IMG/VR virus record: IMGVR_UViG_2619619135_000002
Length of the DNA stretch: 45,104 bases
Direction: 5' to 3' (one strand)
From: a virus
Taxonomy: Duplodnaviria > Heunggongvirae > Uroviricota > Caudoviricetes
This document shows, one piece after another, positions 3,603 through 44,583 of this stretch; within the stretch, counting starts at the first letter, position 1; each line of letters opens with the position of its first letter. The position numbers and the translations under genes are program-made. The notes beneath the pieces were generated by a model. It made no database searches, had not been told where the DNA came from, and saw only the letters and a program-made list of their open reading frames with translations.

Positions 3603-6600
3603 TCAGCTAATCGTGATGCCTGCAGTGGCTTTCTTCATCACCACAACCAGCAAATCGCTGATACTTGCTGTGGGATACCAGTTATTTACCAGCCACGCTG
3701 ACACCGAAAACTCCAGCGTCATGTGACCGTGACCAGCCGGCATATCAATAACACCACTGTAAATCAGCGTATTATCCAGCGCGGTACGGTTATAAATTTC
3801 AGCGCCGTTTTTCCGTACGATCAGACGGCATGAGGAGTAAATATCAGTATGCTCTTTCTCATGTTTAGCGCCACTGAATGCCACCGCCGGAATAACAATC
3901 TGCCGGTCAAACGGCTGATCGTCATAAACCCTGACGGTAATGGTTCCTGATGGCCACCGCTCCGGTGCACGGGAGTCCCGGGGGAAAGCTTTGCCCACTG
4001 TTTTAACGAGATCGCCTTCAATCTGGTTCGCGGACAGTTTTCCCAGAACCCGACAGTTCTCGTTAATCGTGACGTTGTTGAGCGTCCCGGAGTTCGCATT
4101 CACGTTACCGCTGATATCGGCATTTTTCGCCGTCAGCCGCCCGTCCGGTGTCAGGGAAAATGCCGGAGGATTACCGCCGCTGGTAATGGTCGGAGCCGTC
4201 AGGCGTTTCAGGAACACGTCGTTCATGAATATCTGATCGCCCTGACCAACAAACATTGGTCTTGTGTTGCCATTAGACGGATCAATAAACGCGATACGGT
4301 TAGCGGCAACCAGGAACTGGCTCAGTTTGCCTTCCTCCGTGTCCTCCATGCTGAGGCCAAGCCCCGCGACATAATGCTTACCGTCTTCGGTCTGCTCAAT
4401 TTTGACGCCCCACATGGCATTCCATTTATCGTTGGCGTCCTTCCACTCTTTCGAAAACTCCTCCAGTTTGCTGGCGTTATCTTCCGTCAGCTCGACTTTT
4501 TCCAGCAGCTCCTTGCCGAGATGGGATTCGGTTATCTGACCTTTGAAAAAATCCAGATAACCTTCCGCATCATCGCTCGCCCGACCGACAGCCTCTACGA
4601 ATGCCGATTTGCCAACGGTGTTCACACTGCAGATATAAAAGTAATAATCATGGCCCGGTTTGATATTGATACTGGCAGCTATCCAGTACAGCGCCGTGCC
4701 AAGATAGCGGGCTGTGGTTTCAACCTGCCTGATATCGGTAATCCGCTTTTCCGAGAACCAGAACTCAAACTGTACCGTCGGATCATAAACCGCAAGATGC
4801 GGCGTGGCGGTGATCTGAAAATAGCCCGGCGTCAGCTCAATCTGTGACGGCGCTGCCGGTGCGGCAATCCGGAACGATACCGATGCCGGATCGCCCTGCT
4901 GTCCCCACGCATTTACCGCCCGGACTGTCAGCCTGTAGTTCCCCAGCGCCAGCTGCCTGAAGCGGTATGTGGTTTCCGTCGTCCGGGCCGTGCTGACCAG
5001 CCGCTCACTGCCGTCATCCGCTGCCACGGCCAGGCGAAGCAGGAAGCTCACGCCCTTCACCACCTTCGGCGTGTCCCAGCGCGCCAGCACCTGATATTCT
5101 CCGCTGTCTGCGGTGGCTTCGGCAGTCAGGTGCTGCACTGCTGGCGGCGTGACACCATTCACCGTGCCGCTCAGATCGCCGTCAAAGTGCGCCCCGTTAT
5201 CCACGATGGCCTCTTTTTCCGGTACATGCTGCACGGCAGTGATGGCATACGTGCCGTCATCGTTCTCACGGATACTCACGCAGCGGAACAGGCGCTGGCG
5301 CAACGTCGGCAGCTTCAGTCCCCATACGCTGTATTCTGCAACGCCGTCAGGAACACGGCTCACTTTCACCTTCACGCCGTCGGTGACGGACTGAACCTCC
5401 ACGCTGACCGGATTGCCACTTCCGTCAACCAGGCTTATCAGCGTGGTACCGGAGGATGGCAGCGTGATTTCACGGTCGAGCGTCAGTGTCCGGGTCTGGC
5501 TGTTCACCGCCAGCACGCGACCACCGGTGCGGATACCGGCATAGTCATCATCACAGATTTCAATAACATCGCCCGGTACATGGCGAAGCCCTTCTGCGCC
5601 GACGCTGAAATCCACGGTCTGCGTTTCCAGCAGTTCTGTTTTAATCAGCCACAGCCCGGCGCGGTGTGCCTGCCCCCGGCTGGTACAGCCAAAGGCATCC
5701 ATCTTCGTAACATTACGACCGTAACGGGCAATGGCCTGCGTGTCCTCCACAAGCTCTGTCGCTGTCTCCCAGCCGTTATCCGGGTCAATCCAGTTCACCT
5801 CAACGGCATTATGGCGGTCCTTCAGGGCGCTGAAGCTGTAGCGGAACGGCGCGCCATCATCCGGCATAACCACATTACTGCGGTTATAGGTCCACACCTT
5901 ATCCGATGGTCGGTCCTGCACGAACGTCAGCGTCTGCCCGTTCCATACCGGCATACAGCGCATCGCCGAGCAGAAATCACTGAGCACATCCCACGCCTTG
6001 CGCTGTGTGGTCAGGTACGCATTACAGGTGATGCGCGGCTCCGTGCCACCAAAGCCGTCCGGCACTGACTGGTCGCAGTACTGGCCGATGACATACAGCG
6101 CCCATTTGTCCACATCCGCCGCACCAAGACGTTTCCCCATGCCGTAGCGCGGATGGGTCAGCATATCCCACAGACACCAGGCCATGTTGTTGCTGTATGC
6201 CGGTTTAAACGTTCCGTCCCAGATACCGCTGTATTGCCGCGTCTGCGGGTTATAGTTCGACGGCACCTGCAGAATGCGCCCGCGCAGATGATAATTACGG
6301 CTCACCTGCTGACTGCCGAACTGCTCCGAATCCACCTGTACGCCAACCAGTGCCGTGTTCGGGTAGCACTGTTTCACATCGATGATTTCAGTGTATGACG
6401 ACCAGAGCGTTTTGTTCTGCAGCTGGTCTGTGGTGCTGTCCGGCGTCATCCTGCGCATCCGGATGTTGAACGGGCGCGGCGGCAGGTTACCCACCACCAC
6501 CGAGGCCAGATACTGCGAGGTGGTTTTGCCCTTAATGGTGATGTCTTTTTCCGTCACCCAGCCACCGTTACGTTGTATCTGAACCAGCAGGCGGACTTCC

Positions 6601-26082: not shown

Positions 26083-26157
<75 letters not shown>

Positions 26158-28110: not shown

Positions 28111-28512
28111 TTATCGATACAGATAAGCCATCCCTATCCCGTGCAATACCGCCCGTTTAATATTCTCAAACTCATCTTCCGCAATCATAGGAACAATATA
28201 ATTTCGTCCCTCCCAGGTTCTGGTTTTTATGCGATCCAGTCGGCTCAATGAAACCGTCATCAACATGTCACATTTTACCCAGCAAGTAATATGCTCATTA
28301 CCAGGTATGGGGTTTTCTGATAACTCATGATGGCAATCTCTGCGAGGGAGCGGTTCAGTAGTGCTTATTGGTACCACTGTTACCAATTGATTGTTGTGCC
28401 TGTTTCTGGACACGACCACCACTGGCCTGACCTTGACTATTTCCGGAACAACCATTCCCCGAAAATCACACATTAAAACAGAACGAACAGACGGCTGATA
28501 CTTTAATACCAT
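28111..28512 (-). CDS. PemK/MazF/Kid-fold toxin-like protein (133 aa from the ATG)
   Basis: MVLKYQPSVRSVLMCDFRGMVVPEIVKVRPVVVVSRNRHNNQLVTVVPISTTEP... aligns by eye to the MazF/Kid N-terminal pattern (Y.P.....DF......RP.VV.S....N...V.P..T). No antitoxin-sized ORF immediately upstream. Confidence 0.6.
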   Translation of the reverse strand: MVLKYQPSVRSVLMCDFRGMVVPEIVKVRPVVVVSRNRHNNQLVTVVPISTTEPLPRRDCHHELSENPIPGNEHITCWVKCDMLMTVSLSRLDRIKTRTWEGRNYIVPMIAEDEFENIKRAVLHGIGMAYLYR

Positions 28513-28616
28513 AAATCTCTTTGCCTGATAATGACGACTTGTGAACTCCACTACAAACAAAATGATTCTGCTGAACAGGCAGTTTCGCACTATACATTAT
28601 AACCTGTTAAGCCAAC

Positions 28617-28639
28617 AAAAAAACCCGCTCGGCGGCGGG
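28617..28639 (-). terminator. Rho-independent terminator downstream of the Q-like gene (tR'-like)
   Basis: Minus strand reads CCCGCCGCCGAGCGGGTTTTTTT, 67-89 nt after the Q-like stop. Confidence 0.7.
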
Positions 28640-28705
28640 ATTTGCTTACTTTGCCATCGAGTACAAAATCGGCAAAATATCAGATTTGCACGAAATATAT
28701 GCCTT

Positions 28706-29395
28706 TTAATCTACTTTTGCAACACTTTGCTTTGAAAATGCCGTCTTTTGTTCTGAACGTGTTCTCATCACAAACAATAAAGCCTCACTATCCAGCCGGT
28801 GGAAAATGTGTTTCATTGCAACCCAGTGACCAGTAAATGTTTTGGACCAGTTTTTTGTTTTTACTCCCGCCAGTAATGCCAGTTCCTGATATTCATAAGT
28901 TTCACGCCCAGCCAGCTCACTCTTCACATCCTGTGCCGCCAGCCAGATTAATTTTTTCAGGCGTTCCCGTGTTTTCTCCGCAATTTTTCTGGTACCGGAT
29001 TGAGTATTAAATTCATTCCACGCCCACTGTGTTATCGCGATCTGATATTCCCAACAAATACTCCCGCTGTAACTCCACAACAACCAGGCTTTATGATGTT
29101 CTTCAAGAGACAGAACAGCCCGCCGCCACGATGATGTCGAAAACTCAACCGGACTGACCAGAGGAATTGACGTCCCCTTCGCCAGCGATTGTTTTCCCGG
29201 GATTGGTGGATTATCCCGCGTAATCATTTTTCCGGTCACTTCATCTCGGTACCGGATTTTTTTACGCCTGTAACGCCCTGTATCGAACATGGCATTCTCC
29301 TGCCAGGCTTCAAGCTGACCTTTTGTTGCCCCACTCAAATCAGCGGTGGCGATAATGAGCTGCTCACGCACAAACTGTAAATACTGGTTATTCAT
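28706..29395 (-). CDS. Putative late-gene antiterminator (Q-like), 229 aa
   Basis: ATG overlaps the RusA stop (ATGA coupling), the arrangement seen in DLP12-type nin regions; followed by an intrinsic terminator and then late and lysis genes. Assignment is by position; the sequence is not recognisably lambda Q. Confidence 0.5.
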   Translation of the reverse strand: MNNQYLQFVREQLIIATADLSGATKGQLEAWQENAMFDTGRYRRKKIRYRDEVTGKMITRDNPPIPGKQSLAKGTSIPLVSPVEFSTSSWRRAVLSLEEHHKAWLLWSYSGSICWEYQIAITQWAWNEFNTQSGTRKIAEKTRERLKKLIWLAAQDVKSELAGRETYEYQELALLAGVKTKNWSKTFTGHWVAMKHIFHRLDSEALLFVMRTRSEQKTAFSKQSVAKVD

Positions 29396-29751
29396 GCGCA
29401 CTCCAGTTCTGTGATTTTTATCCCCAACCGACCACCAGGAACGAGCTGACCGCGCACAATATTGATTTCATCAAACTGCTCGTCGTCTATGAGAAGCCCC
29501 GCATGCATCAGTGCATCCAGCGGTGCTTTCAGGATATTGTCCAGGTCCCGACGGCGCTTATCCGGCGGCTCTGCAGTAATTTTTATTGCCAGCCTTCCGG
29601 ACAGGCTTAATTTCAGCCGCTGCTGGCGAACAATAAGCACCACAGCCCGGCGATAACGCTTTCCCTCCTCCGAGATAAAATATGTGCTGCCACGGCGTCG
29701 CCAGTAAGTGTTCACCGTCGGCGGGTAAGGTAAAACCAAATCTATGAGCAT
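29392..29751 (-). CDS. rusA: Holliday junction resolvase RusA
   Basis: 119 aa with ...PPDKRRRDLDNILKAPLDALMHAGLLIDDEQ..., the conserved RusA catalytic Asp region; size matches E. coli RusA (120 aa). Confidence 0.85.
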   Translation of the reverse strand: MLIDLVLPYPPTVNTYWRRRGSTYFISEEGKRYRRAVVLIVRQQRLKLSLSGRLAIKITAEPPDKRRRDLDNILKAPLDALMHAGLLIDDEQFDEINIVRGQLVPGGRLGIKITELECA

Positions 29752-31551: not shown

Positions 31552-31707
31552 TTACTCCTCAGGTTCGTAGACTGTGAAGACAGCGACCTCCGTCTGGCCG
31601 GTTCGGATTCGTACCTCGCAGAGGTCTTTCCTCGTTACCAGTGCCGTCACTATGACGGTTAAACAGATGACGATCAGGGCGATTAACATCGCCTTTTGCT
31701 GCTTCAT
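31552..31707 (-). CDS. hok: Hok/Gef-family type I toxin (HokD/RelF-like), 51 aa
   Basis: MKQQKAMLIALIVICLTVIVTALVTRKDLCEVRIRTGQTEVAVFTVYEPEE: single TM helix plus the conserved C-x-[VI]-R periplasmic motif; near-identical to HokD as recalled. The in-frame upstream extension in the listed ORF is likely leader (mok-like) sequence. Confidence 0.85.
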   Translation of the reverse strand: MKQQKAMLIALIVICLTVIVTALVTRKDLCEVRIRTGQTEVAVFTVYEPEE

Positions 31708-32554
31708 AGCCTGCTTCTCCTTGCCTTTCGGCACGTAAGAGGCTAACCTAGATTTGCCGTTCATAGATTGAGCCTCAGATTAATGTTAAGCGTCTTGCAG
31801 GACGCGTAATGTTAACTGGGGCTTTTCTCTATCTGCCTTTGGTGTTCATGCCTGAGACAGATAGCCTCAAGCACCCGCAGCCATTGTACTTAACTCCCGT
31901 TACCTCGCCAATATAAAATCAATCAGAAAGGCGATCCATAAGGACAATAGCAAGACAATAAATTGCCATTACCCGCAATAGCCAGCGCACATTTGAGGAC
32001 CAGCACGACAACTTTCTGTATCGGACGTACACCAGTCCTGATAAATACAAGGCGGTCTCATCAGTGATGAAATGCAACTATTGAGTACAGTTTCTCTGAT
32101 TTTTCTGTAAAACATGGAACACAACAACTAAATATAACTAGCACTTCTTAAGATGTACAAATTCAGAGTTAAGATAACGTAAGCAGTTTTCTCAAAACTA
32201 AGTGTAAATTTTTAATGAAGAGCAGTGCTATGCTCCTGATCATATATTCATTGTTTGGAACTGGAGGAATATTTAGGTTGCTGGAGTGGTTGATTGAATT
32301 TAAATCAACTAAGACAAAAACCAACAATTAAAGATATGTGGTATATCAGAAAACAACTATCCGTATATTACTACAGAATTAAATACTAGCAACAAAGCTG
32401 TCTTTATTGATTTTTTATCTGATATCGAAATAAATAAACATAAAATAACCAACTAATTAAAACAGAGACTCGACAATGAGCCTCTATCTATTGTAACAGC
32501 ACTTCCAAATTTATTTTAGTAAGATAATAGCATGGGGCATACTAGCCCCATCTT

Positions 32555-35059
32555 TTAAACCGTTTCATCAAGGAAATACTTAGACGAATCATCCTGTTTC
32601 GGTTGATATGTTTTTTTTGCAGAATTAAGAACTCTTCTTAGTTCTTTTCTTAACTCAGGTAAACGCTCCTGAAGAGGGTTAGAACACCATTGTGAAGGCA
32701 ACCCTCTTATAATAGCTTCGGAACAAAGCGGTGAAATAAGTTTTTCCATTTGATAATAGAAAGTTTTTGCTCGACTTACACGCATTGTGATCCTTTTTAT
32801 TACATCTCTTTCAGACTCAATTCTAGCACTCAGATCTCTTAATCTACTCCATACCTTAGCATCAGCAATATATGTATCATAAAGCATACACTCTATAAAC
32901 GTGAAATTACTAATAAGTTCTTTTGCAATATACCCCCCCAGCCGAGAAGGAATGAAACTTGATGAAGCTGTTGGATCTCCGTGATTTACGGTGAACAAAA
33001 ACCTTTTATTGCATAAATCAACGAGAACTCGATGCGTGAAAGAGTCACCTATACCAATTAACCTTAACTTTTCAGTTATTACCGAACCATCGATTTGTCT
33101 GAATCCGGGATCGCTTGCATACGAAACGATAACATTAAGAATGTACAGCCTCAATAATTGCATTTGTGTCACAGCTAAATTCGAATCAAACGGGTTCGCA
33201 ATAGTCGACGTTGACTCGCTATAAGTCAACTCAGTACCCAGTAATATAGCTCTAAATGCCTCATGACGTGGAAGAAGATATCTTCCTTGTTCTCTGAAAA
33301 TTTGTACTGCTTTACCTGGACTCGTATACCCTCTTTCTAAGAACTCACGAGTCATACGTAATGCTAATCGAACATCATCCGTAGCAAGAACTTCAATACG
33401 TGTTCCAATCTCACTTCCCAGCACAGACCCACTAATAATATCGACTAATTGTGATATATCATCCAATACAACTTTAGCGCCATTTTCTGCAATAAAATTT
33501 CCACTTTTATTACTTGTCATATACTTTACTAGTGCAAAGCGTTTTGCAATCACACTACTTATTCTCGGTGGATCTATTTGTATAACTTCAAAATCGAAAG
33601 CATCTATAGCAGGTGAGTTTTTATGTTTGATAAATGTAGACTGCCTCAATGAAAGTACTAAATTTAATGAAAGCGCTCTGGAAATTGAAAATGACTCGGT
33701 AAATATCCGGGACTGGATATCATCAAACTCGATCTGATCAACGTTATCAATAACAAGAAAAAAAGATGTCTCTTTTGTAACGCGACTTATTATTTTATCA
33801 ACATAAGGTTTTATCTTTTTATATTGTTCATATAAAAAATCCGAGATTCTGGTATTTTTTTGATCCTCACTCAATAAAAAAAGAGGTCCTGATTTTATCG
33901 CCTCAATATCTTCTCGAAATGCATCAAATACAAAATCCTTATTACTCAAAACAGGATGCTTATTGATATATTCCAGAATTGATTTATAAATAAAATCGAC
34001 TATTGAACTTTCTGATGGATTATCTAGAAAGTCTATATGAACCCAATGCGGCGTCAAGATATCACATTGATTTGAAAAAAACTCTTTTATTCTAACCTTT
34101 CTCATGTAATGAAGAAATGTTGTTTTACCTGCACCTACAGTCCCAAGTAACAAGATCGCGAGAGGTTTGTCATTCCTGACTTTTATTTTTTTCTTCCCTT
34201 TAACCTGAAACTTATCAACTATTCTTTTTGTATCTTTATCATTAAGCCCTTTTAGTACTTCACCATTCAGCACACTTGAACGCCTACCTATATTCATTCT
34301 AATTTTACTATCGAATCTCATAGTTTCTGGTGTTGAAACATAACATTTATCAAAGGAGTCTTCATCCAAGTAAAGTATAGAATCAGAAAAAGCCAACCTT
34401 AATTCATCAGCAATCAAATGATATATTGGATTATTTGTCTGTGTTCTGTTTTGTTGCGAATAAAAATTTCTTAATTTTCTAAATTCTATTTGATTTTCGA
34501 CGCGACCTAAAAGTGCTGTTTCTAGACTTCCTGATATAACATTTTCACGACTAAGTAAATCATAGAATTCTTGATAATTATCATTTAAGCAATCTTCTAA
34601 CGACCAGAACACAAGCGCTATTGAATCATTAAATTTGACATTGTCATGCCTCTGAGCTGCAAAACATGCCCATACATTTCCATTCGTAGCGACAGCATAA
34701 TCTATACCAAATTTCCTGGCGTAATCTCTAGCTTGTATTATCGCTTCACCAAGATCACTTTGTAAAAAACTATTACTTAGCTTTATTTTTCTTTTTCCTG
34801 GAATTGTACTAAAGCTTGGCCCTGCCTTTTTAGCTTCAACAACAAGAGCAATATTAGCTGTTTTTAGTATATAATCAGCATAAGTTGTCAAACCATCTTC
34901 AGTCACATGCTCTTCTGGTTTTATATCACTATCAGTCCACATCAAGACTTCCTTTAATACCCGATCTATCACTTTTAGTCTTGTGGCTGCTTCATTTGCA
35001 TTTTCTAATTGTAAATGATGATAAGCTGATAATATTTCCGAAATAAATGTTTTCTCCAT
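32555..35059 (-). CDS. Large nuclease-NTPase fusion protein: N-terminal PD-(D/E)xK (HsdR-N/Mrr-like) nuclease domain plus STAND/NACHT-like P-loop NTPase plus alpha-helical C-terminal domain; candidate antiphage defence protein
   Basis: 834 aa. Residues about 60-77 TYADYILKTANIALVVEAKK give the D...E-x-K nuclease signature, followed by ...YAVATNGNVW... Walker A at about 306-313 (GTVGAGKT); Walker B at about 433-442 (FFLVIDNVDQ, a D-x-h-D-E/Q pattern typical of STAND NTPases). The gene and its flanks are visibly AT-rich relative to the rest of the prophage. Confidence 0.6.
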   Translation of the reverse strand: MEKTFISEILSAYHHLQLENANEAATRLKVIDRVLKEVLMWTDSDIKPEEHVTEDGLTTYADYILKTANIALVVEAKKAGPSFSTIPGKRKIKLSNSFLQSDLGEAIIQARDYARKFGIDYAVATNGNVWACFAAQRHDNVKFNDSIALVFWSLEDCLNDNYQEFYDLLSRENVISGSLETALLGRVENQIEFRKLRNFYSQQNRTQTNNPIYHLIADELRLAFSDSILYLDEDSFDKCYVSTPETMRFDSKIRMNIGRRSSVLNGEVLKGLNDKDTKRIVDKFQVKGKKKIKVRNDKPLAILLLGTVGAGKTTFLHYMRKVRIKEFFSNQCDILTPHWVHIDFLDNPSESSIVDFIYKSILEYINKHPVLSNKDFVFDAFREDIEAIKSGPLFLLSEDQKNTRISDFLYEQYKKIKPYVDKIISRVTKETSFFLVIDNVDQIEFDDIQSRIFTESFSISRALSLNLVLSLRQSTFIKHKNSPAIDAFDFEVIQIDPPRISSVIAKRFALVKYMTSNKSGNFIAENGAKVVLDDISQLVDIISGSVLGSEIGTRIEVLATDDVRLALRMTREFLERGYTSPGKAVQIFREQGRYLLPRHEAFRAILLGTELTYSESTSTIANPFDSNLAVTQMQLLRLYILNVIVSYASDPGFRQIDGSVITEKLRLIGIGDSFTHRVLVDLCNKRFLFTVNHGDPTASSSFIPSRLGGYIAKELISNFTFIECMLYDTYIADAKVWSRLRDLSARIESERDVIKRITMRVSRAKTFYYQMEKLISPLCSEAIIRGLPSQWCSNPLQERLPELRKELRRVLNSAKKTYQPKQDDSSKYFLDETV

Positions 35060-36231: not shown

Positions 36232-37308
36232 TTACCCCCTGAAGCCCGGCGGAATTTCGTTATCCGGTTCAGAAATATGATTCACACAACGCTGGTTGTT
36301 CGTGCCGCTTACCGGGAGCAACCAGGGGTTCTCAAAATTCCTGTCCGGTCCAAAAAACGTCGTCGCTCGCTGAACAAATTCCGTTCCCGTTTTCCCGGTA
36401 GCCGCCAGGTATCTTGCGTAACGCCTCACGCCATCCAGCATGGCCTCTGGTGGCACCCCCTCGCGTAATCTGGCCTTCCAGGCACTGAAAGCGGATTTCT
36501 TCGGGTTTGCTCCGGCACGCAACGGGTACTCCCGCCAGACCTGTTCGAACACATCCGGATAATCCACTCGTCCCACAGACTGCCCGGTGTTTTCCGGGAC
36601 TACCCGATCGGCTTCCCGCTGAATGGCGGAATCGGCTTCAGGCTGCTGCAGTTGGTGTGATTGCTCCGGCCTTGCGATCATCACCTGCTGCACAGCGCCC
36701 GAATCGGCTTTCAGCGCATACGCTGAATCGGCTTCCGGTGTCGTGCCTGCTGGCTGACCAGGATTGACGGTCTGAACATCCCCTGCCTGGTTCGTGGCGT
36801 TTTTTACGCCATGGACCATAGTGTTTTGATCTTCTTGATCTGTATCTTTATCTGTATCTTTATCTGTCGTGACTCGTCGTGACATGTGCGTGACATTTCG
36901 TGACGCGCCGTGACAATCGCCATTTTGTTCCCGCTTTCTTTCCCTCTCTCGCTGCGCCCTCTTGCGCTCTGCAGGAGATTTTGCGGTTTGCGAAATATTG
37001 CCGTTGTCCTCTTTAAGCACCTGGCGTTTTTCCCATCCAGTGATTAAATCACCATCAAGTCCCCGCCCCTGCATCGTCTGCAAAATTGAATCAATTACCT
37101 CTTCTGTCACGTCGAGCGCACTTGCCAAATCTTCTGTCGTGACATCAATGTGACCTCGCGTGACATTTCGTGACGCGCTCACCAGGAGGTGGATATACAC
37201 TGCCATCACTGTTGCAATTGGCTGCCCTGACACCCTGGCAATTGTTCGCCACTTAGGGTCATTTGGCATGTCATGCCATAATCTGAGCCAGGCGTTAGCC
37301 ATACTCAC
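36232..37308 (-). CDS. Replication initiator / replisome organiser (O-like) carrying the origin iterons inside its coding sequence
   Basis: 358 aa; N-terminal wHTH-like MANAWLRLWHDMPNDPKWRTIARVSGQPIATVMAVYIHLL; position downstream of cro/cII-like genes; two CGTGAC iteron arrays lie inside the gene, mirroring lambda O/ori organisation. Confidence 0.65.
   Translation of the reverse strand: MSMANAWLRLWHDMPNDPKWRTIARVSGQPIATVMAVYIHLLVSASRNVTRGHIDVTTEDLASALDVTEEVIDSILQTMQGRGLDGDLITGWEKRQVLKEDNGNISQTAKSPAERKRAQRERERKREQNGDCHGASRNVTHMSRRVTTDKDTDKDTDQEDQNTMVHGVKNATNQAGDVQTVNPGQPAGTTPEADSAYALKADSGAVQQVMIARPEQSHQLQQPEADSAIQREADRVVPENTGQSVGRVDYPDVFEQVWREYPLRAGANPKKSAFSAWKARLREGVPPEAMLDGVRRYARYLAATGKTGTEFVQRATTFFGPDRNFENPWLLPVSGTNNQRCVNHISEPDNEIPPGFRG
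36868..36914. repeat. Iteron array 1: five CGTGAC repeats at 10-11 bp spacing, with adjacent TGTATCTTTATC tandem repeats
   Basis: CGTGAC at 36868, 36878, 36889, 36899 and 36909; preceded by TATCTGTATCTTTATCTGTATCTTTATCTG at 36841-36867. Confidence 0.7.
37138..37174. repeat. Iteron array 2: four (C/T)GTGAC repeats at 10-11 bp spacing
   Basis: CGTGAC at 37138, 37159 and 37169 and TGTGAC at 37149. The 19-mer CGTGACATTTCGTGACGCG is shared with array 1. Confidence 0.7.
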
Positions 37309-38025: not shown

Positions 38026-38054
38026 GAGTCGCTCCATAAAACTGAACGCCAAAA

Positions 38055-38116
38055 GTTTAATAATCAAAACCAAAGAAAGTCAAGAAACAAAACCATATGT
38101 GTTTTAAAATCAAAAC
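38055..38116. promoter_or_regulatory. OR-like operator/promoter region with two 16-bp GTTT(T)-N6-AAAAC sites
   Basis: GTTTAATAATCAAAAC (38055-38070) and GTTTTAAAATCAAAAC (38101-38116, abutting the repressor ATG); a third related site sits at the PL-like promoter. Confidence 0.55.
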
Positions 38117-38755
38117 ATGAGCAAGCAAACAATATCTGAACGCATAACCCAACGTATGCATGCGCTAAACCTGAAAGGCAAAGACCTTGTCAATGCCACT
38201 GGCGCATCAAAAGGCTCCGTAAGTCAATGGATGAACGGTGGAGGAGCGCCGTCCTCGCGTTACATAAGTTCACTGGCAAAGATATTGAAAGTAAACGAAA
38301 ATTGGCTTCTTAATGGAGGAGAGTTAAATACAGGTGATTCGCTTGATCTATCTTTACCGCCGATAAAAACGGTTCCGCTACTATCACTTCAGCAGGCAGC
38401 AAGCTGGAGTGATTATATGAAAAATTCCTCAATAACCTCTTGTGTGCAGCTTGTCGGAGAAATCCCGGCCAATACCTTTGCAGTTGTTCTAGAGAGTGAC
38501 AGTATGTCAACATCTGGTGGGGGAGTTTCCATCCCAAATGGTTCAACAGTTTTTGTTGATCCCGATCGAACCGTACAACCAGGAAATATTGTCCTTGCCT
38601 TACCCAAAGGGACCACAACACCTGTCATTCGTAAACTGGAGATAGAAGGGCCGGATATTCTTTTAGTCCCCACGAATCCTCGCTACCCTTCAATTATGCT
38701 GGAAGATCTATCTTGCATATTGGGCGTATGCTTTAAAATTCAACAAGATATTTAA
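38117..38755 (+). CDS. Phage repressor (CI-like; HTH plus LexA/S24 autopeptidase domain)
   Basis: 212 aa; N-terminal HTH; C-terminal S24 domain with Ser in VLESDSMS and Lys in PVIRKLE; no Shine-Dalgarno and an operator abutting the ATG, consistent with a leaderless PRM-type transcript. Confidence 0.85.
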   Translation: MSKQTISERITQRMHALNLKGKDLVNATGASKGSVSQWMNGGGAPSSRYISSLAKILKVNENWLLNGGELNTGDSLDLSLPPIKTVPLLSLQQAASWSDYMKNSSITSCVQLVGEIPANTFAVVLESDSMSTSGGGVSIPNGSTVFVDPDRTVQPGNIVLALPKGTTTPVIRKLEIEGPDILLVPTNPRYPSIMLEDLSCILGVCFKIQQDI

Positions 38756-38822
38756 CCAACCTCATCTATTTGATTAACTGTATGCCATCGTGGTGATGGC
38801 TTAACAGCTGCCTGCCTAAAAT

Positions 38823-38868
38823 GTTTTGATAAAAAAACATTGACCTGAAAAGTTCATTTTTCTAAACT
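38823..38868 (+). promoter_or_regulatory. PL-like promoter with overlapping operator
   Basis: GTTTTGATAAAAAAAC (38823-38838) then -35 TTGACC (38840-38845), 17-bp spacer, -10 TAAACT (38863-38868). Confidence 0.5.
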
Positions 38869-38966
38869 TCATTCATTCCCTCACCCCACCCCACAGAACG
38901 CCGGGCAATACTTCGAGTTACCAGGCAGTGGTCAGGGGTTAAGTAGCCAGCCCGAGGCGTAAGAAC

Positions 38967-39197
38967 ATGACGGCAGGGTTCAACTTTAACTATGCAGCAG
39001 GTTTTTGTTCCGCCACCCCGGCGTTAAGGGGAAATGAGGTCAGCATGGATACTATCGATCTTGGCAACAACGAGTCTCTGGTATACGGCGTGTTTCCAAA
39101 CCAAGACGGCACGTTCACGGCGATGACGTATACCAAAAGCAAAACGTTTAAAACCGAAGCTGGCGCGCGTCGCTGGTTAGCCAGAAATACTGACTGA
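38967..39197 (+). CDS. Hypothetical small protein (76 aa; alternative internal start MDTIDLG)
   Basis: First ORF downstream of the PL-like promoter; GAGG SD candidates before both possible starts. Confidence 0.4.
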   Translation: MTAGFNFNYAAGFCSATPALRGNEVSMDTIDLGNNESLVYGVFPNQDGTFTAMTYTKSKTFKTEAGARRWLARNTD

Positions 39198-39208
39198 TGA
39201 GGTTGACG

Positions 39209-39538
39209 ATGGAATTTAAAGATTTACCAATGCCATTCCAGGAAATGGCAGCGAATATAGTTCATTCTCAATTGGCGACTCTTGACCTGAGTACCGTAGA
39301 AAAAGAAACCATCGATAATATATCCGGTAACGTGCGTCGTGCCTTTATCGGTCTGTACGAAGAGAAGCAACTCTCTGATAACCAGGATTTACATAAAAAA
39401 TACTTCCTGGAATTAATGGACATCATTAATAAGGGGTTTGGCTTGTTAATGGAAAAGAAAGGGATTCGGATAGAACCCCTTGAAAATTGCTTCGTAACAA
39501 GAAGCATCAATTCTTTTGATTCAAAACAAGAGAATTAA
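39209..39538 (+). CDS. Hypothetical protein (109 aa from MEFKD)
   Basis: GAGG 7 nt before the ATG; overlaps the stop of the preceding ORF; lower GC than the structural genes. Confidence 0.45.
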   Translation: MEFKDLPMPFQEMAANIVHSQLATLDLSTVEKETIDNISGNVRRAFIGLYEEKQLSDNQDLHKKYFLELMDIINKGFGLLMEKKGIRIEPLENCFVTRSINSFDSKQEN

Positions 39539-39782
39539 TTACAGATTTAACATGCTCTTTCTCATGATTGAAGCTCTCAGGGTTGAAAGTGCCCGGCTGA
39601 AGCGAGTCGATATAATCAACGAGATTCTTTCGTACCGTTTCATCTTTATTCATGGCAGATGCAAGGTATGAAATTGCTAACAATGTTATATCACTACGCG
39701 CCGCAGCATGCTGTAGTGTTTTATCAAAATCATTAATTTTCCGTATAAGAGAGTTAAGAGTTTCATTGACATCAAACCCCAT
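39507..39782 (-). CDS. Hypothetical protein (91 aa from MGFDVNETL), convergent with the PL-side genes
   Basis: AGGAGG SD 5 nt before the ATG at 39782. The 202-aa listed ORF includes a GC-rich upstream extension judged to be non-coding. Confidence 0.45.
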   Translation of the reverse strand: MGFDVNETLNSLIRKINDFDKTLQHAAARSDITLLAISYLASAMNKDETVRKNLVDYIDSLQPGTFNPESFNHEKEHVKSVINSLVLNQKN

Positions 39783-40348
39783 TTCATCCTCCTGAGGGTT
39801 AGTAATTAAGGAGTTCTCCACGGGTGAGGTGGAGTGCGTGCGCCGGACACGGGTGAGCATCCGGCACTGACAGTTTACTGAAAGGATATCTCCCTGAAAA
39901 GTCAGGGCATAACGCGAAAGCGCACGGCGAAGTTGTTGGTTCATAGATAGCCTGTCGTTAAATTTTCGTCGACCGTGCGCTTCCGGTTGTGGCACTCCGC
40001 GAAATGGCGCGGCGGTAAGTATGGCGGGGTTATTCCTTCCCCGTTGAGGACACCGGGTTGTCAGGTTGACCATACGCTTAAGTGACAACCCCGCTGCAAC
40101 GCCCTCTGTTATCAATTTTCTGGTGACGTTTGGCGGTATCAGTTTTACTCCGTGACTGCTCTGCCGCCCTTTTTAAAGTGAATTTTGTGATGTGGTGAAT
40201 GCGGCTGAGCGCACGCGGAACAGTTAAAACCAAAAACAGTGTTATGGGTGGATTCTCTGTATCCGGCGTTAATTGTTAACTGGTTAACGTCACCTGGAGG
40301 CACCAGGCACCGCATCAACAAAGTTCATTTGTAAAAATGGAGATAATT

Positions 40349-40570
40349 ATGATTGCTCATCACTTCGGAACTGATGAGATTCCTCGTCAGTGCGTGACTC
40401 CCGGTGATTATGTTATTCATAAAGGAAGAACATATATTGCTTCGGTAAACAACATTAAAAAACAACGGCTCTATATTCGTGATTTTTCCACACAACACTG
40501 TATTAAGGAAACCATGATTAAAGTCTTCCTTGGTCGTGATGGTTTACCTGTAAAAGCAGAGTCATGGTGA
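40349..40570 (+). CDS. Hypothetical protein (73 aa from MIAHHFG)
   Basis: GGAG 7 nt before the ATG; immediately upstream of the large exonuclease gene. Confidence 0.4.
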
Positions 40571-40693: not shown

Positions 40694-43165
40694 ATGAGTA
40701 AAGTCTTTATTTGCGCCGCCATTCCGGACGAACAGGCAATAAAGGAAGAAGGTGCAGTTGCTGTAGCCACTGCCATTGAAGCCGGCGACGAACGCCGCGC
40801 CCGTGCCAAATTTACCTGGCAATTCCTGGAGCAACATCCGGCTGCTCAGGACTGCGCTTATAAATTTCTTGTCTGTGAGGATAAACCCGGCATGGCCCGC
40901 CCTGCCCTTGATTCCTGGGATACCGAATATATGCAGGAAAACCACTGGGATGAGGAATCCGCTTCCTTTATTCCGGTCGAACCAGAATCCGATCCGATGA
41001 ACGTCAATTTTGACAAGCTGTCCCTTGAAGTACAGAACGCGGTCCTAGTTAAGTTCGGTACATGTGAAAACATCACCGTTGATATGGTGATTAGTGCACA
41101 GGAATTGTTGCAGGAGGACATGGCAACATTCGACGGGCATATCGTTGAGGCATTGATGAAAATGCCTGAAGTTAACGTCATGTATTCAGAGCTTAAGCTG
41201 CTCGCCATCGGGTGGGTTAAACATAAATGTAATCCAGGTGCCAAATGGCCCGAAATTCAGGCAGAGATGCGCATCTGGAAAAAACGTCGCGAAGATGAAC
41301 GCAAGGAAACCGGAAAATACACGTCTGTTGTTGATCTCGCCCGCGCCAGAGCCAATCAACAGCACACTGAAAATTCAACAGGAAAAATCAACCCGGTCAT
41401 TGCTGCCACTCATCGCGAATACAAGCAGACATGGAAAACACTGGATGACGAACTGGCCTACGCTCTCTGGCCTGGTGATGTGGATGCCGGAAACATTGAC
41501 GGCAGCATCCATCGCTGGGCAAAAAATGAAGTTATCGACAACGACCGCGAAGACTGGAAGCGTATCTCGGCATCAATGCGCAAACAGCCTGATGCCCTTC
41601 GCTACGACCGCCAGACTATTTTTGGCCTTGTCCGTGAACGTCCGATCGACATTCACAAAGACCCTGTGGCACTGAACAAATACATTACTGAATACCTGAC
41701 TACAAAGGGCGTGTTTGAAGATGAAGGAAGAAATCAGAGCGCAACTGATACTCTCTCGGCGCCAGTACCAGAAACTGATGCAGTGGAAACGGCAATTCAG
41801 GACAACGAAAAAACCGAATGCAAAGTGGAAGTCGAACCATCTGTAGAGCGTGAGGGGCCGTTCTACTTCCTCTTCACCGACAAGGATGGCGAAAAATACG
41901 GTCGCGCAAACAAACTTTCTGGTCTGGGTAAGGCACTGGCTGCCGGGGCTACTGAAATCACGAAAGAAGAATATTTCGCCCGCAAAAACGGTACATACTC
42001 AGGTTCACAACAAAATACTGGTGCATCTGACACGACCGCACAACCAGGGCCGGTAAAAGTTACCGCTGACGAAGTAAACAAAATTATGCAGGCAGCCAAT
42101 ATCAGCCAGCCTGACGCCAATCAGTTGCTTGCTGTATCACGTGGTGAATTTGTTGCAGGGATTAGCGACCCGAATGATCCGAAATGGGTGAAAGGGATTG
42201 AAACCCGCGATTCTGTGAACCAGAACCAGCAAGAAACGGAACAGAACGACCAGAAAGCGGAACAAAACAGCCCAAATACGCAACAAAACGAGCCAGAAAC
42301 GAAACAACCTGAACCAGTAGTGCAACAGGAACCGGAAAAGATCTGCACCGCCTGCGGTCAGAGCGGTGGCGGCAACTGCCCTGAATGTGGTGCGATGATG
42401 GGCGACGCAACATACCAGGAAACATTCGATGACAAGAACCAGGTTGAAGTTCAGGAAGACGATTCGGAGAAAATGGAAGGCGCTGAACATCCACACAAGG
42501 AGAATGCTGGCAGCGCTCAGGACCACGCCAGCGATAGTGAAACTGGCGAGACGGCAGATCCCTTAATTAAGGTGAACGGTCATCACGTTATCACATCCAC
42601 CAGCAGGACGTGTGACCATCTAATGATCGACCTTGAAACCATGGGAAAAAATCCTGATGCCCCGATTATCTCAATAGGCGCAATATTTTTCGATCCACAA
42701 ACCGGAGATATGGGACCGGAATTTAGCAAGACCATCGATCTGAATACTGCTGGCGGAGTCATTGATCGTGACGTCATTAAATGGTGGCTTAAACAATCAC
42801 GCGAAGCGCAATCTGCCATTATGACCGATGAAATCCCGTTAGATGATGCACTGTTACAATTGCGGGAATTTATCGACGAAAACTCCGGTGAATTTTTTGT
42901 TCAGGTCTGGGGAAATGGAGCCAACTTCGATAACACGATTTTGCGCCGTTCATACGAACGGCAGGGGATCCCATGCCCGTGGCGTTACTACAACGATCGC
43001 GATGTACGCACAATCGTTGAGCTGGGGAAAGCCATAGACTTCGATGCCAGAACGGCTATTCCATTCGAAGGTGAGCGCCATAATGCACTTGATGACGCCC
43101 GTTACCAGGCAAAATACGTTTCAGCAATCTGGCAAAAACTGATCCCGAATCAGGCTGATTTTTAA
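40694..43165 (+). CDS. RecE-like (exodeoxyribonuclease VIII family linker) protein with a C-terminal DEDDh 3'-5' exonuclease domain
   Basis: 823 aa. Central region (...SRGEFVAGISDPNDPKWVKGIETRD...CTACGQSGGGNCPECGAMMGDATYQETFDD...) resembles the RecE linker as recalled. The C-terminus carries DnaQ-like motifs: Exo I MIDLET, Exo II VWGNGANFD, Exo III HNALDDARYQ. Confidence 0.7.
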   Translation: MSKVFICAAIPDEQAIKEEGAVAVATAIEAGDERRARAKFTWQFLEQHPAAQDCAYKFLVCEDKPGMARPALDSWDTEYMQENHWDEESASFIPVEPESDPMNVNFDKLSLEVQNAVLVKFGTCENITVDMVISAQELLQEDMATFDGHIVEALMKMPEVNVMYSELKLLAIGWVKHKCNPGAKWPEIQAEMRIWKKRREDERKETGKYTSVVDLARARANQQHTENSTGKINPVIAATHREYKQTWKTLDDELAYALWPGDVDAGNIDGSIHRWAKNEVIDNDREDWKRISASMRKQPDALRYDRQTIFGLVRERPIDIHKDPVALNKYITEYLTTKGVFEDEGRNQSATDTLSAPVPETDAVETAIQDNEKTECKVEVEPSVEREGPFYFLFTDKDGEKYGRANKLSGLGKALAAGATEITKEEYFARKNGTYSGSQQNTGASDTTAQPGPVKVTADEVNKIMQAANISQPDANQLLAVSRGEFVAGISDPNDPKWVKGIETRDSVNQNQQETEQNDQKAEQNSPNTQQNEPETKQPEPVVQQEPEKICTACGQSGGGNCPECGAMMGDATYQETFDDKNQVEVQEDDSEKMEGAEHPHKENAGSAQDHASDSETGETADPLIKVNGHHVITSTSRTCDHLMIDLETMGKNPDAPIISIGAIFFDPQTGDMGPEFSKTIDLNTAGGVIDRDVIKWWLKQSREAQSAIMTDEIPLDDALLQLREFIDENSGEFFVQVWGNGANFDNTILRRSYERQGIPCPWRYYNDRDVRTIVELGKAIDFDARTAIPFEGERHNALDDARYQAKYVSAIWQKLIPNQADF

Positions 43166-43226
43166 TGTTCAACCGTCGCCAGTTGTCGTTGGTATTCTGC
43201 AACTGGCGCGTTCCGGAGTGATAACC

Positions 43227-43496
43227 ATGAGCGAACAGTACCTGATAACGCTCGATGAGTGGAAACCAAAACGGTTCAGTCTCCCAATAACAAACACTAC
43301 CCTGGTGAAATACGGAAAACTAGGATACATCGTTCCAAGACCACAAAAAATTCGTGGGCGTTGGCTGATAGATCGCCGGGCAGTATTTGTTGGACCTGGT
43401 GAAACGGGAATTGCGCCGGAAATTCATACTGGCGATGATGATGCACTGAAGGAGATTTTAACTCATGTCACCGAGGCCACGAAAAAACAGCACTGA
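43227..43496 (+). CDS. xis: Excisionase (Xis-like)
   Basis: Small basic protein immediately upstream of and overlapping int; MSEQYLITLDEWKPKRFSLPITNTTLVKYG resembles the lambda Xis N-terminal pattern. Confidence 0.6.
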   Translation: MSEQYLITLDEWKPKRFSLPITNTTLVKYGKLGYIVPRPQKIRGRWLIDRRAVFVGPGETGIAPEIHTGDDDALKEILTHVTEATKKQH

Positions 43497-44583
43497 CGTA
43501 ACCGGTCTTTACGAAAAGTTTGATCGCAGAACTGGCAGGGTTTACTACCAGTATAAAAACCCTGTGACTGGAAAATTTCACGGTCTCGGAACAGACAAAG
43601 GCAAAGCAGAAAAAATCGCTTCCACAGCCAATCAGCGAATAGCTGCAGCAGAAGCTGAATATTTCATGCGCAAAATTGATGAAAGTCCGTCAGCAACAAA
43701 ACGTCGGGGTATCAGATTAAAGGCATGGGTTGATCGATATCTGAAAATACAGGACACGCGACTGAAAAATGGAGATATTGCAGCTACAACTCACAAAGAA
43801 AAAACTCGAATGGCTGCATACCTGGTTTCCCGTCTGGGAAACCACCCATTGAAAGAACTGGAAGTAAGAGACTTTGCATTAATACTGGATGAGTGGCTGG
43901 ATAAAGACATGGTCAGCACAGCGAGAGTAAATCGCGGATTATGGGTTGATATTTATAAAGAAGCACAGCATGCAGGGGAAGTCCCTCCCGGATGGAATCC
44001 TCCGGAGGCTACCCGTAAACCGATCCCTAAAGTAACCAGAGCCAGGCTCACTCTGGAAGACTGGCAAAAAATTTACAACGCAACGCCTGAAAAACACTTT
44101 ATCCGTAACGCAATGCTTCTTGCGATTGTTACTGGCCAGCGCCGTGATGACATTTGCCACATGCGTTTTTCAGATGTGTGGAACGATCACCTGCATATTA
44201 CCCAGGGAAAAACTGGAATGCGTCTTGCGTTACCGCTTACGCTACGCTGTGATGCCATCGGGATATCGCTAAAAGAAGTGATTAATGGATGCAGGGACAG
44301 GATATTGAGTCCATACCTGATTCATAGTCGGCACCAGAAACAACCAAAACCAATGAGTAAAGACAACCTGAGCGATTACTTTGCCAAAGCGCGGGATCTG
44401 GCTGGAATAATTCCACCAGCCGGAAAAACACCGCCAACATTTCATGAACAACGCTCCCTGTCAGAACGGCTGTACCGGGCACAGGGTATCGATACAAAAA
44501 CATTACTGGGACATAAAGTCCAGGCAACTACCGATCGTTATAACGATACTCGTGGTCAGGAATGGGTTAAATTGGTTATTTGA
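43465..44583 (+). CDS. int: Tyrosine integrase (lambda Int family)
   Basis: 372 aa; alignable by eye to lambda Int along its length, including ...AIVTGQRRDDICHMRFSDV..., ...TFHEQRSLSERLY... and ...LLGHK...RYNDTRGQEW (catalytic R, H-x-x-R and Y regions). Confidence 0.9.
   Translation: MSPRPRKNSTDVTGLYEKFDRRTGRVYYQYKNPVTGKFHGLGTDKGKAEKIASTANQRIAAAEAEYFMRKIDESPSATKRRGIRLKAWVDRYLKIQDTRLKNGDIAATTHKEKTRMAAYLVSRLGNHPLKELEVRDFALILDEWLDKDMVSTARVNRGLWVDIYKEAQHAGEVPPGWNPPEATRKPIPKVTRARLTLEDWQKIYNATPEKHFIRNAMLLAIVTGQRRDDICHMRFSDVWNDHLHITQGKTGMRLALPLTLRCDAIGISLKEVINGCRDRILSPYLIHSRHQKQPKPMSKDNLSDYFAKARDLAGIIPPAGKTPPTFHEQRSLSERLYRAQGIDTKTLLGHKVQATTDRYNDTRGQEWVKLVI

Follow-up and report, generated by a model that had tools for sequence, protein, structure and literature searches.

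The 45,104-nucleotide (nt) window analysed here, virus record IMGVR_UViG_2619619135_000002 (Caudoviricetes), includes, at ~37.4-44.6 kb, a lambdoid prophage's immunity and early-left region. Within this region, downstream of a PL-like promoter, lies a stretch on the plus strand that an earlier note had described as GC-rich, structured and non-coding, and had interpreted as possibly a put-like antitermination element or a decayed N/nut region. We found that 39798-40316 is very probably the dicF block of a dicBF operon, in the promoter-proximal half of the early-left operon of a Qin/Rac-like lambdoid prophage of Escherichia coli that bears kil and is apparently intact. The locus is already known as dicF of the Qin/Rac-type Escherichia coli prophages, described from 1989 on, and is ordinary except for a four-way-junction RNA domain upstream of DicF.

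The identification is based on sequence identity, family membership and context. In an alignment with K-12, 507 of the 519 positions of 39798-40316 (97.7%) are identical to the ydfC-dicB intergenic region of Qin. Conservation with K-12 and with 32 distinct variants of the dicF block from relatives starts at a left boundary at 39797/39798; on the right side the alignment to K-12 diverges after ~40316. The Rfam model of DicF (RF00039) matches 40118-40169 over its full length with 76.7 bits (gathering cut-off 48). The 53-nt DicF, placed at 40117-40169 in the K-12 register after a 1-nt correction, is identical to that of K-12, including the 5' seed and the ftsZ-binding loop. Together with its terminator, a hairpin at 40131-40168 (-15.9 kcal/mol) followed by UUUUU at 40170-40174, the small RNA occupies 40117-40174 (+). 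It is embedded in the long untranslated region of a PL-like, repressor-controlled operon with a ydfA-like first gene, as expected of a DicF. A 2-kb query matched 4768 of 5426 complete E. coli genomes, and the block is 97-100% conserved across thousands of E. coli genomes and isolated phages. RefSeq E. coli genomes and the phages Evi and Tritos have the same block and gene order, and DicF is annotated in Tritos. The description of the stretch as non-coding structured RNA therefore held for 39798-40316, and the Rfam and covariance searches that had been proposed for it returned DicF at the gathering level and support from covariation. Its GC content was partly misjudged: at 50.9%, 39798-40335 is rich relative to its flanks (38.5% and 36.2%) but not relative to the window mean (51.2%).

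Comparison with K-12 suggests how the block is processed. In K-12, a single promoter, dicBp, drives a polycistronic RNA. A cut by RNase III between +813 and +814 makes the 5' end of a 190-nt DicF species, and RNase E makes the 53-nt DicF. The 3' terminus is set either by the intrinsic terminator or by RNase III acting on full-length RNA, the latter yielding a 72-nt form. With Hfq, DicF represses ftsZ and several metabolic mRNAs. We mapped these sites onto the window via the K-12 promoter and an alignment offset of 37234, with the transcription start site (TSS) estimated to within +-3 nt. The RNase III site would then fall at ~39984/39985, which is the foot of a long predicted hairpin and coincides exactly with the 5' boundary of the covarying four-way junction. 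The interval between 39984/6 and the U-run (40173/5) measures 190 nt, and the 190-nt 'long DicF' is the four-way-junction domain plus DicF. Upstream of it, the minimum free energy (MFE) fold of the 5' structured leader (39798-39984, +) has two small hairpins and a long hairpin (~39908-39985) with the RNase III site at its 3' foot. Downstream of DicF, consensus folding of the kil-type variants with alifold gives a structured 3' leader (40171-40340, +), with two conserved hairpins and a hypervariable middle inside a stem of ~22 base pairs (bp; ~40176-40197 with 40310-40340). This long-range stem is the dominant feature of the very stable leader fold, sits where the 72-nt 3' end (~40188, in the left arm) is expected and, by analogy with K-12, probably holds the RNase III site for that end. 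Relative to dinucleotide shuffles, the fold z-scores are -2.45 for 39798-40180, -2.27 for the 190-nt species and -4.70 for 40171-40348. The RNase III mapping, the 190-nt length and the 22-bp stem together make every part of the structured stretch a piece of a DicF processing cassette.

Across prophages, the leader between DicF and kil or dicB has conserved flanks around a hypervariable middle (40228-40262), with unrelated inserts of 30-60 nt. In a 2-kb search, the STnc100/PasD model (RF02076) aligned over its whole length to 40171-40356, including the conserved hairpin CACC-NGG-AGGCA-CCN-GGCACC, with a score of 37.9 bits (E = 3.6e-6), below its gathering threshold of 47. In contrast to STnc100, the segment here is the 5' leader of kil or dicB.

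No conserved coding was found in 39798-40316, and no plus-strand open reading frame (ORF) in 39783-40330 exceeds 36 amino acids (aa). A conserved protein-coding gene in relatives, which the earlier note had named as the finding that would overturn its view, was likewise not seen among the 32 variants. On the minus strand, the ORF at 39507-40115 and its 145-aa version in RefSeq (WP_001317923.1, 39507-39944) both fail in relatives. The RefSeq/PGAP annotation of the latter implies that 39783-39944 is protein-coding on the minus strand, and the frame is indeed open in the window. We nevertheless regard this as very improbable. A strong Shine-Dalgarno (SD) sequence and ATG at 39782 give a 91-aa form, and the N-terminal 54 aa and C-terminal 91 aa of the 145-aa model occur independently and in other contexts in the protein database. 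Moreover, K-12 carries the dicF block without the 91-aa gene. Among the variants, the 145-aa frame has in-frame stops in 7 of 32, has lost its ATG in 5 and is frameshifted in 1; its variable sites are distributed over codon positions 1, 2 and 3 as 13/20/17, with no third-position excess. Judged from the sequence, WP_001317923.1 is probably a real 91-aa gene with a spurious extension into the dicF leader. RefSeq also annotates a 'DicB partial' pseudogene, an N-terminal DicB fragment, at 40239-40322 (+). This is probably an annotation artefact as well and fits an untranslated upstream in-frame extension of the dicB ORF. Cam and co-workers reportedly found in 1988 that this upstream extension is not the translated inhibitor.

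The operon around the block starts at a PL-type promoter identified by a promoter scan (38821-38868, +). Its -35 element TTGACC (38840-38845) and -10 element TAAACT (38863-38868) are separated by a 17-nt spacer, so the PL-like promoter noticed earlier is indeed present, at 38840-38868. K-12 dicBp has the same -35 hexamer at the same position. Operator-like palindromes at 38821-38840 and 38848-38867 overlap the promoter, and palindromes of the form ATGTTTT-N6-AAAACAT and relatives of it are common to the PR/PRM side (38051-38118; for example 38100-38118) and the PL region (38821-38867). The promoter is predicted from these motifs to be repressor-controlled. The shared palindromes define the immunity specificity of the prophage. 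The neighbouring gene at 38117-38755 (+) encodes a CI-type repressor of 212 aa with a helix-turn-helix (HTH) motif and an S24 peptidase domain (Pfam Peptidase_S24, 2.1e-13, and HTH_3; PHROG transcriptional repressor). Since this arrangement is LexA-like, the repressor is probably SOS-cleavable. The immunity region also has two leftward genes, one P22-Cro-like and one CII/YdaT-like.

Downstream of the promoter are two small ORFs that are not arginine-rich and a convergent 91-aa gene, as had been noticed before. The first ORF is ydfA/ydaF-like (38967-39197, +; Pfam DUF1391, 1.2e-28; phrog_751; RefSeq start at 39045). The second (39209-39538, +; phrog_6937) encodes a 109-aa hypothetical protein whose N-terminal ~60 aa are common to several PHROGs; a longer start would give 113 aa (39197-39538). 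The 91-aa gene (39507-39782, -) has a perfect AGGAGG-5 nt-ATG start. The last two form a convergent cassette (39209-39782) with 3' ends that overlap by 32 bp. The cassette is inserted relative to K-12 Qin; in strain 20Ec-P-124 it separates ydfC from the block. Neither Pfam nor PHROGs has a match for the 91-aa protein, and its gene occupies the place of sieB in Rac, so this may be a lysogen-expressed moron or exclusion gene. On the other side of the block, kil (40349-40570, +; phrog_294, 2.6e-34; 'kil' in RefSeq), encoding a septation inhibitor of the Rac KilR type directed at FtsZ, replaces the dicB-ydfD of Qin. The distal early-left genes beyond the DicF terminator (40694-44583, +) encode an 823-aa exonuclease (40694-43165; Pfam Rv2179c-like 3'-5' exonuclease), an excisionase (xis, 43218-43496; Pfam Exc) and an integrase (int, 43465-44583; Pfam Phage_integrase).

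In the PL operon, no ORF matches the N family in Pfam or PHROGs, which agrees with the absence of an N-like gene in the PL-proximal position as reported previously. The small arginine-rich protein that lambda encodes close to PL has no counterpart here, and the N family was also absent from the PL operon of four related carrier phages that we checked. The position of the stretch in the PL operon is roughly that of N in lambda, and both motifs that had suggested a nut site can be found: a boxA-like 12-mer, TGCTCTTTCTCA, at 39553-39564, and a small hairpin, CCCTGA-AAAG-TCAGGG. We nevertheless consider a decayed N gene with a nut site to be hardly credible. The block is conserved at 97-100% as an RNA, with covariation and with neither codon periodicity nor an ORF remnant. 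The 12-mer lies inside the convergent gene and is at chance level: the window has 5 matches of at most two mismatches where shuffles have 3.7+-1.9, and the identical 12-mer recurs at 3850. The hairpin is at 39892-39907, slightly offset from the position first given for it (~39896-39911), 330 nt from the 12-mer where a boxB hairpin would closely follow a boxA. Its loop is an AAAG tetraloop and not the GNRA-like pentaloop of boxB, and the 'boxB-like' shape is not conserved: since 39906 and 39907 differ in 21-23 of the 32 variants, the stem has just 4 bp in most relatives. The other hairpin that had been pointed out, GCCGGA-N12-TCCGGC, is at 39842-39865. Among the phage BLAST matches listed, all are dicF-type or P1 regions and none carries an N annotation.

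The suggestion of put-like antitermination fared no better. The put RNA of HK022 is ~70 nt long, consists of two stems and a triplex, occurs in both early operons (putL from +3 of PL) and acts on the zinc-binding domain of the RNA polymerase beta' subunit. The HK022 record NC_002166 carries no annotation of put, so the entire PL- and PR-proximal regions of that phage served for the comparison with the window, which gave only chance matches of 10-18 nt (E >= 0.14). A search for putL and putR in HK022 by inverted repeats and by BLAST of the PL side against the PR side gave nothing clear. No ~70-nt two-stem RNA was found at the 5' end of the PL transcript: the PL leader (38875-39044) has no similarity to HK022, the block begins ~920 nt from the predicted start, and the four-way junction is ~1.1 kb from PL and not at +3. 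A covariance model of the junction, run with filters off, matched the window once (147.8 bits); the next match had 10 bits and lay inside a gene, and there is no second copy in the PR operon. The likeness to HK022 is one of context only, namely a structured nascent RNA in the early operon of an N-less lambdoid phage. Instead of an antitermination site of either type, the stretch is the dicF small-RNA locus.

The part of this locus that departs from the expected is the 115-nt domain at 39986-40100 (+), the 5' part of the 190-nt 'long DicF'. We aligned 20 non-redundant sequences drawn from more than 120 viral contigs. In RNAalifold, the alignment folds into a four-way junction in which 96.5% of the cells are paired, compared with 34-61% when the partners are slid. 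Double changes were found in 7 pairs (2.3+-1.3 in shuffles), a number reached by 1 of 500 shuffles. The helices are P1 (39986-39993/40093-40100), P2 (39997-40001/40008-40012), P3 (40013-40016/40052-40055) with P3b, and P4. P3b (40026-40029/40039-40042) carries a loop that is CU-rich in all aligned sequences and contains an anti-SD-like motif. P4 (40057-40066/40076-40089) contains the sequence CAGGUUGACCAUACGCYURAGUG (40062-40084), which includes the 19-nt P4 loop and is almost invariant even in loci fetched with an anchor outside the loop. The 5' strand of the domain, CCGCGAAAUGGCGCGGCGGUAAGUAUGGC, is almost invariant as well. The domain has no Rfam family at E<=10, and readings of the junction as a tRNA-like, 5S-like or ribozyme structure were rejected on this ground. 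We found no paper on it in the literature searched.

The domain is distributed independently of DicF. BLAST against phages showed that 39986-40108 is conserved apart from DicF in Ayreon, cdtI, 2H10, Stx2c phages, Salmonella F1055 and P1/P7/D6; in the retrieved loci it lies at 1501-1600 (P1), 1497-1613 (Ayreon) and 1501-1620 (F1055). Matches were also obtained in 511 plasmid records, mostly of non-mobilizable plasmids of 80-120 kb. A scan of genome contigs with a 14-base anchor gave almost only chance matches in unrelated metagenome-assembled genomes, with E. albertii the sole real one. Behind the domain, all terminator variants inspected have a variable linker and then a GC-rich hairpin with its U-run. 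About nine unrelated hairpins are found there, and several versions of the terminator lack the DicF seed or the ftsZ-binding loop. Between phage families, the seed of DicF is conserved less well than the domain. What stays constant is thus a unit of junction plus terminator, the 190-nt 'long DicF', with the 53-nt DicF as one variable 3' module of it.

For the domain, two roles are more likely than one in cis: that of a scaffold for processing or stability, fixing where RNase III and RNase E cut, or that of a second trans-acting or protein-binding RNA. The second RNA would be a fragment of ~130 nt (39984-40116) freed by RNases III and E that binds its target through the P4 or the P3b loop. Near-invariant loops on covarying stems would suit such a function, as would the constant CU-rich, anti-SD-like motif in the P3b loop and the retention of the domain where the DicF seed and ftsZ-binding loop have been replaced. 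A target search in ftsZ gave a single 10-nt complement in the coding sequence, which is not significant, and no published stable 130-nt fragment was found in the literature searched. The ftsZ match pairs the P4 loop (40062-40084) with ftsZ +421 through the exact complement AAGCGTATGG. It is probably due to chance because its duplex energy does not surpass that of shuffles and most variants have a weakened match. We hold this second RNA to be a possibility, and a doubtful one.

Less probable by far is that the domain acts in cis by modifying RNA polymerase or gating the terminator, in a put-like or an attenuator- or riboswitch-like manner, and so controls read-through to kil-exo-xis-int in N-less phages. 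Such a role at the terminator is conceivable since no N-family protein was found in the PL operon of this or of the four other carrier phages checked. In addition, three unrelated contexts place the domain after a repressor-controlled early promoter and ahead of an intrinsic terminator with early genes behind it: this window, Ayreon/cdtI (~280 nt from PL) and phage P1 (~60 nt after P1ban). Covarying stems with near-invariant loops and junctions are also what factor-binding RNAs show, and the terminator itself varies in sequence, with its roughly nine different hairpins. This support is thin, and part of what was observed speaks against such a role. As described above, the domain is single-copy and missing from the PR operon, is unlike HK022 put in sequence, and is a 115-nt four-way junction and not a ~70-nt two-stem RNA at +3 of PL. 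In K-12 it accumulates within a terminated, RNase III-processed 190-nt RNA, so termination does happen right behind it. The spacing between domain and terminator varies (~13-30+ nt), and no conserved alternative pairing with the 5' arm of the terminator was seen in the Ayreon, P1 and F1055 types. A candidate antiterminator pairing was examined separately. In the MFE fold of the 190-nt RNA, GGCGCGGCGG pairs with the 3' arm of the terminator; the P1 and F1055 types lack this complementarity, which is thus not conserved. The broader form of the idea is that the junction is an autonomous module of temperate enterobacterial phages in which no N was found (Qin/Rac-like, Ayreon/cdtI/Stx2c-type, P1 ban leader), setting read-through in cis as an RNA-only substitute for N unrelated to put. 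We likewise find this improbable.

Some points weigh against the assignment of the stretch to a dicF block. The processing sites in this prophage are transferred from K-12 and depend on a TSS estimated to +-3 nt, so their positions are approximate. K-12 northern blots showed no transcripts beyond dicF. The assignment also does not explain why, among P1, Ayreon-type and Qin-type phages, DicF is less conserved than the junction and in particular than the 19-nt loop.

Among known systems, the prophage shares features with both Qin and Rac. With the dicBF operon of K-12 Qin (ydfABC-dicF-dicB-ydfD) it shares a PL-like promoter beside a repressor gene, a ydfA homologue as the first gene, the nearly identical ydfC-dicB block with an identical DicF, the terminator and both RNase III stems. 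It differs in having a full CI/LexA-type repressor with an S24 domain where Qin has DicA, in the replacement of ydfB and ydfC by the 109-aa/91-aa convergent cassette and of dicB-ydfD by kil, and in keeping exo, xis, int, Q and other genes. With the early-left region of Rac (ydaG-ydaF-sieB-kilR) it has in common a DUF1391 (YdaF/YdfA) first gene and a KilR-type kil. In the gene order of Rac, a gene on the other strand stands at the sieB place, matching the 91-aa gene here, although the latter is not SieB-like. K-12 Rac is not known to have a dicF, whereas the prophage here has one. The layout is shared with the isolated or inducible Qin-like lambdoids Evi, Tritos, HannyBb, mEp460 and PPompW. All have the order cI-PL-small ORFs-dicF block-kil or dicB-exonuclease-xis-int with a block 97-100% identical, and the differences are confined to the cassettes that separate ydfA from the block and to the choice of kil or dicB; Evi has the same layout as the window and Tritos has dicB.

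Phage P1 belongs to another phage family and shares the junction domain, with ~78% identity over 97 nt and compensatory changes in the P3b and P4 helices. There the domain lies in the leader of the ban operon, which C1 controls, ~60 nt downstream of P1ban, and it overlaps the 'dicF-like region' of the annotation. As in the window, a terminator follows, here just after the repressor-controlled promoter. However, the P1 3' module has a different terminator hairpin and neither the DicF seed nor the ftsZ-binding loop. The put RNA of HK022, with its ~70 nt, two stems and triplex in both operons, contrasts with the single 115-nt four-way junction ~1.1 kb from PL, to which it has no sequence similarity.

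Based on K-12, the following sequence of events can be proposed. Inactivation of the CI-type repressor would let PL fire and produce a polycistronic RNA that covers the ydfA-like gene and the cassette and extends into the block. RNase III would cut at the foot of the long hairpin (~39984/39985) to give the 190-nt species, four-way junction plus DicF, and RNase E would cut at ~40116/40117 to release the 53-nt DicF. The 3' end would be set by the terminator of DicF itself, at the U-run 40170-40174, or, in read-through RNA, by RNase III in the downstream stem, giving the 72-nt form. DicF with Hfq would then repress ftsZ and several metabolic mRNAs. Transcription from PL can reach kil, exo, xis and int, which are located past the DicF terminator, only by read-through. 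The fraction of transcripts that reads through would carry kil, exonuclease, xis and int. The terminator could thus be a built-in, fixed attenuator that gives much small RNA and less of the toxic and recombination gene products without an N-type factor. With its dense structure and its excess of G over C (C/G = 0.80), the untranslated block may be a poor loading site for Rho. DicF and Kil may jointly block host cell division in lytic growth.

Several other features of the window were noted. A hok/sok-type locus is found at 31702-31876 (-), where the Rfam sok antitoxin RNA scores 110 bits (against 59). In the late/Q region of the prophage there is a tRNA gene at 26086-26157 (-; Rfam tRNA, 65.6 bits). 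The Q antiterminator gene (Pfam Phage_antiter_Q, 9.4e-93) is directly followed by an ORF for a PemK/MazF-like toxin (7.6e-14), the two spanning 28111-29401 (-). Two long ORFs have no Pfam match: one of 834 aa in the PR operon (32555-35059, -) and one of 358 aa that is replisome-organiser-like (36232-37308).

The finding as such is a re-discovery of the dicF locus and matters little. The 145-aa RefSeq protein and the 'DicB partial' pseudogene are probable annotation artefacts over a region of non-coding RNA. A modest but concrete lead is the four-way-junction domain, which is absent from Rfam: this conserved, covarying junction together with DicF makes up exactly the 190-nt 'long DicF' observed in experiments. 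If the junction has a function of its own, be it in target binding, as a scaffold for processing or in regulating the terminator ahead of kil-exo-xis-int, the biology of DicF would need revisiting, and the same would be true of how N-less lambdoid phages run their early-left operon.

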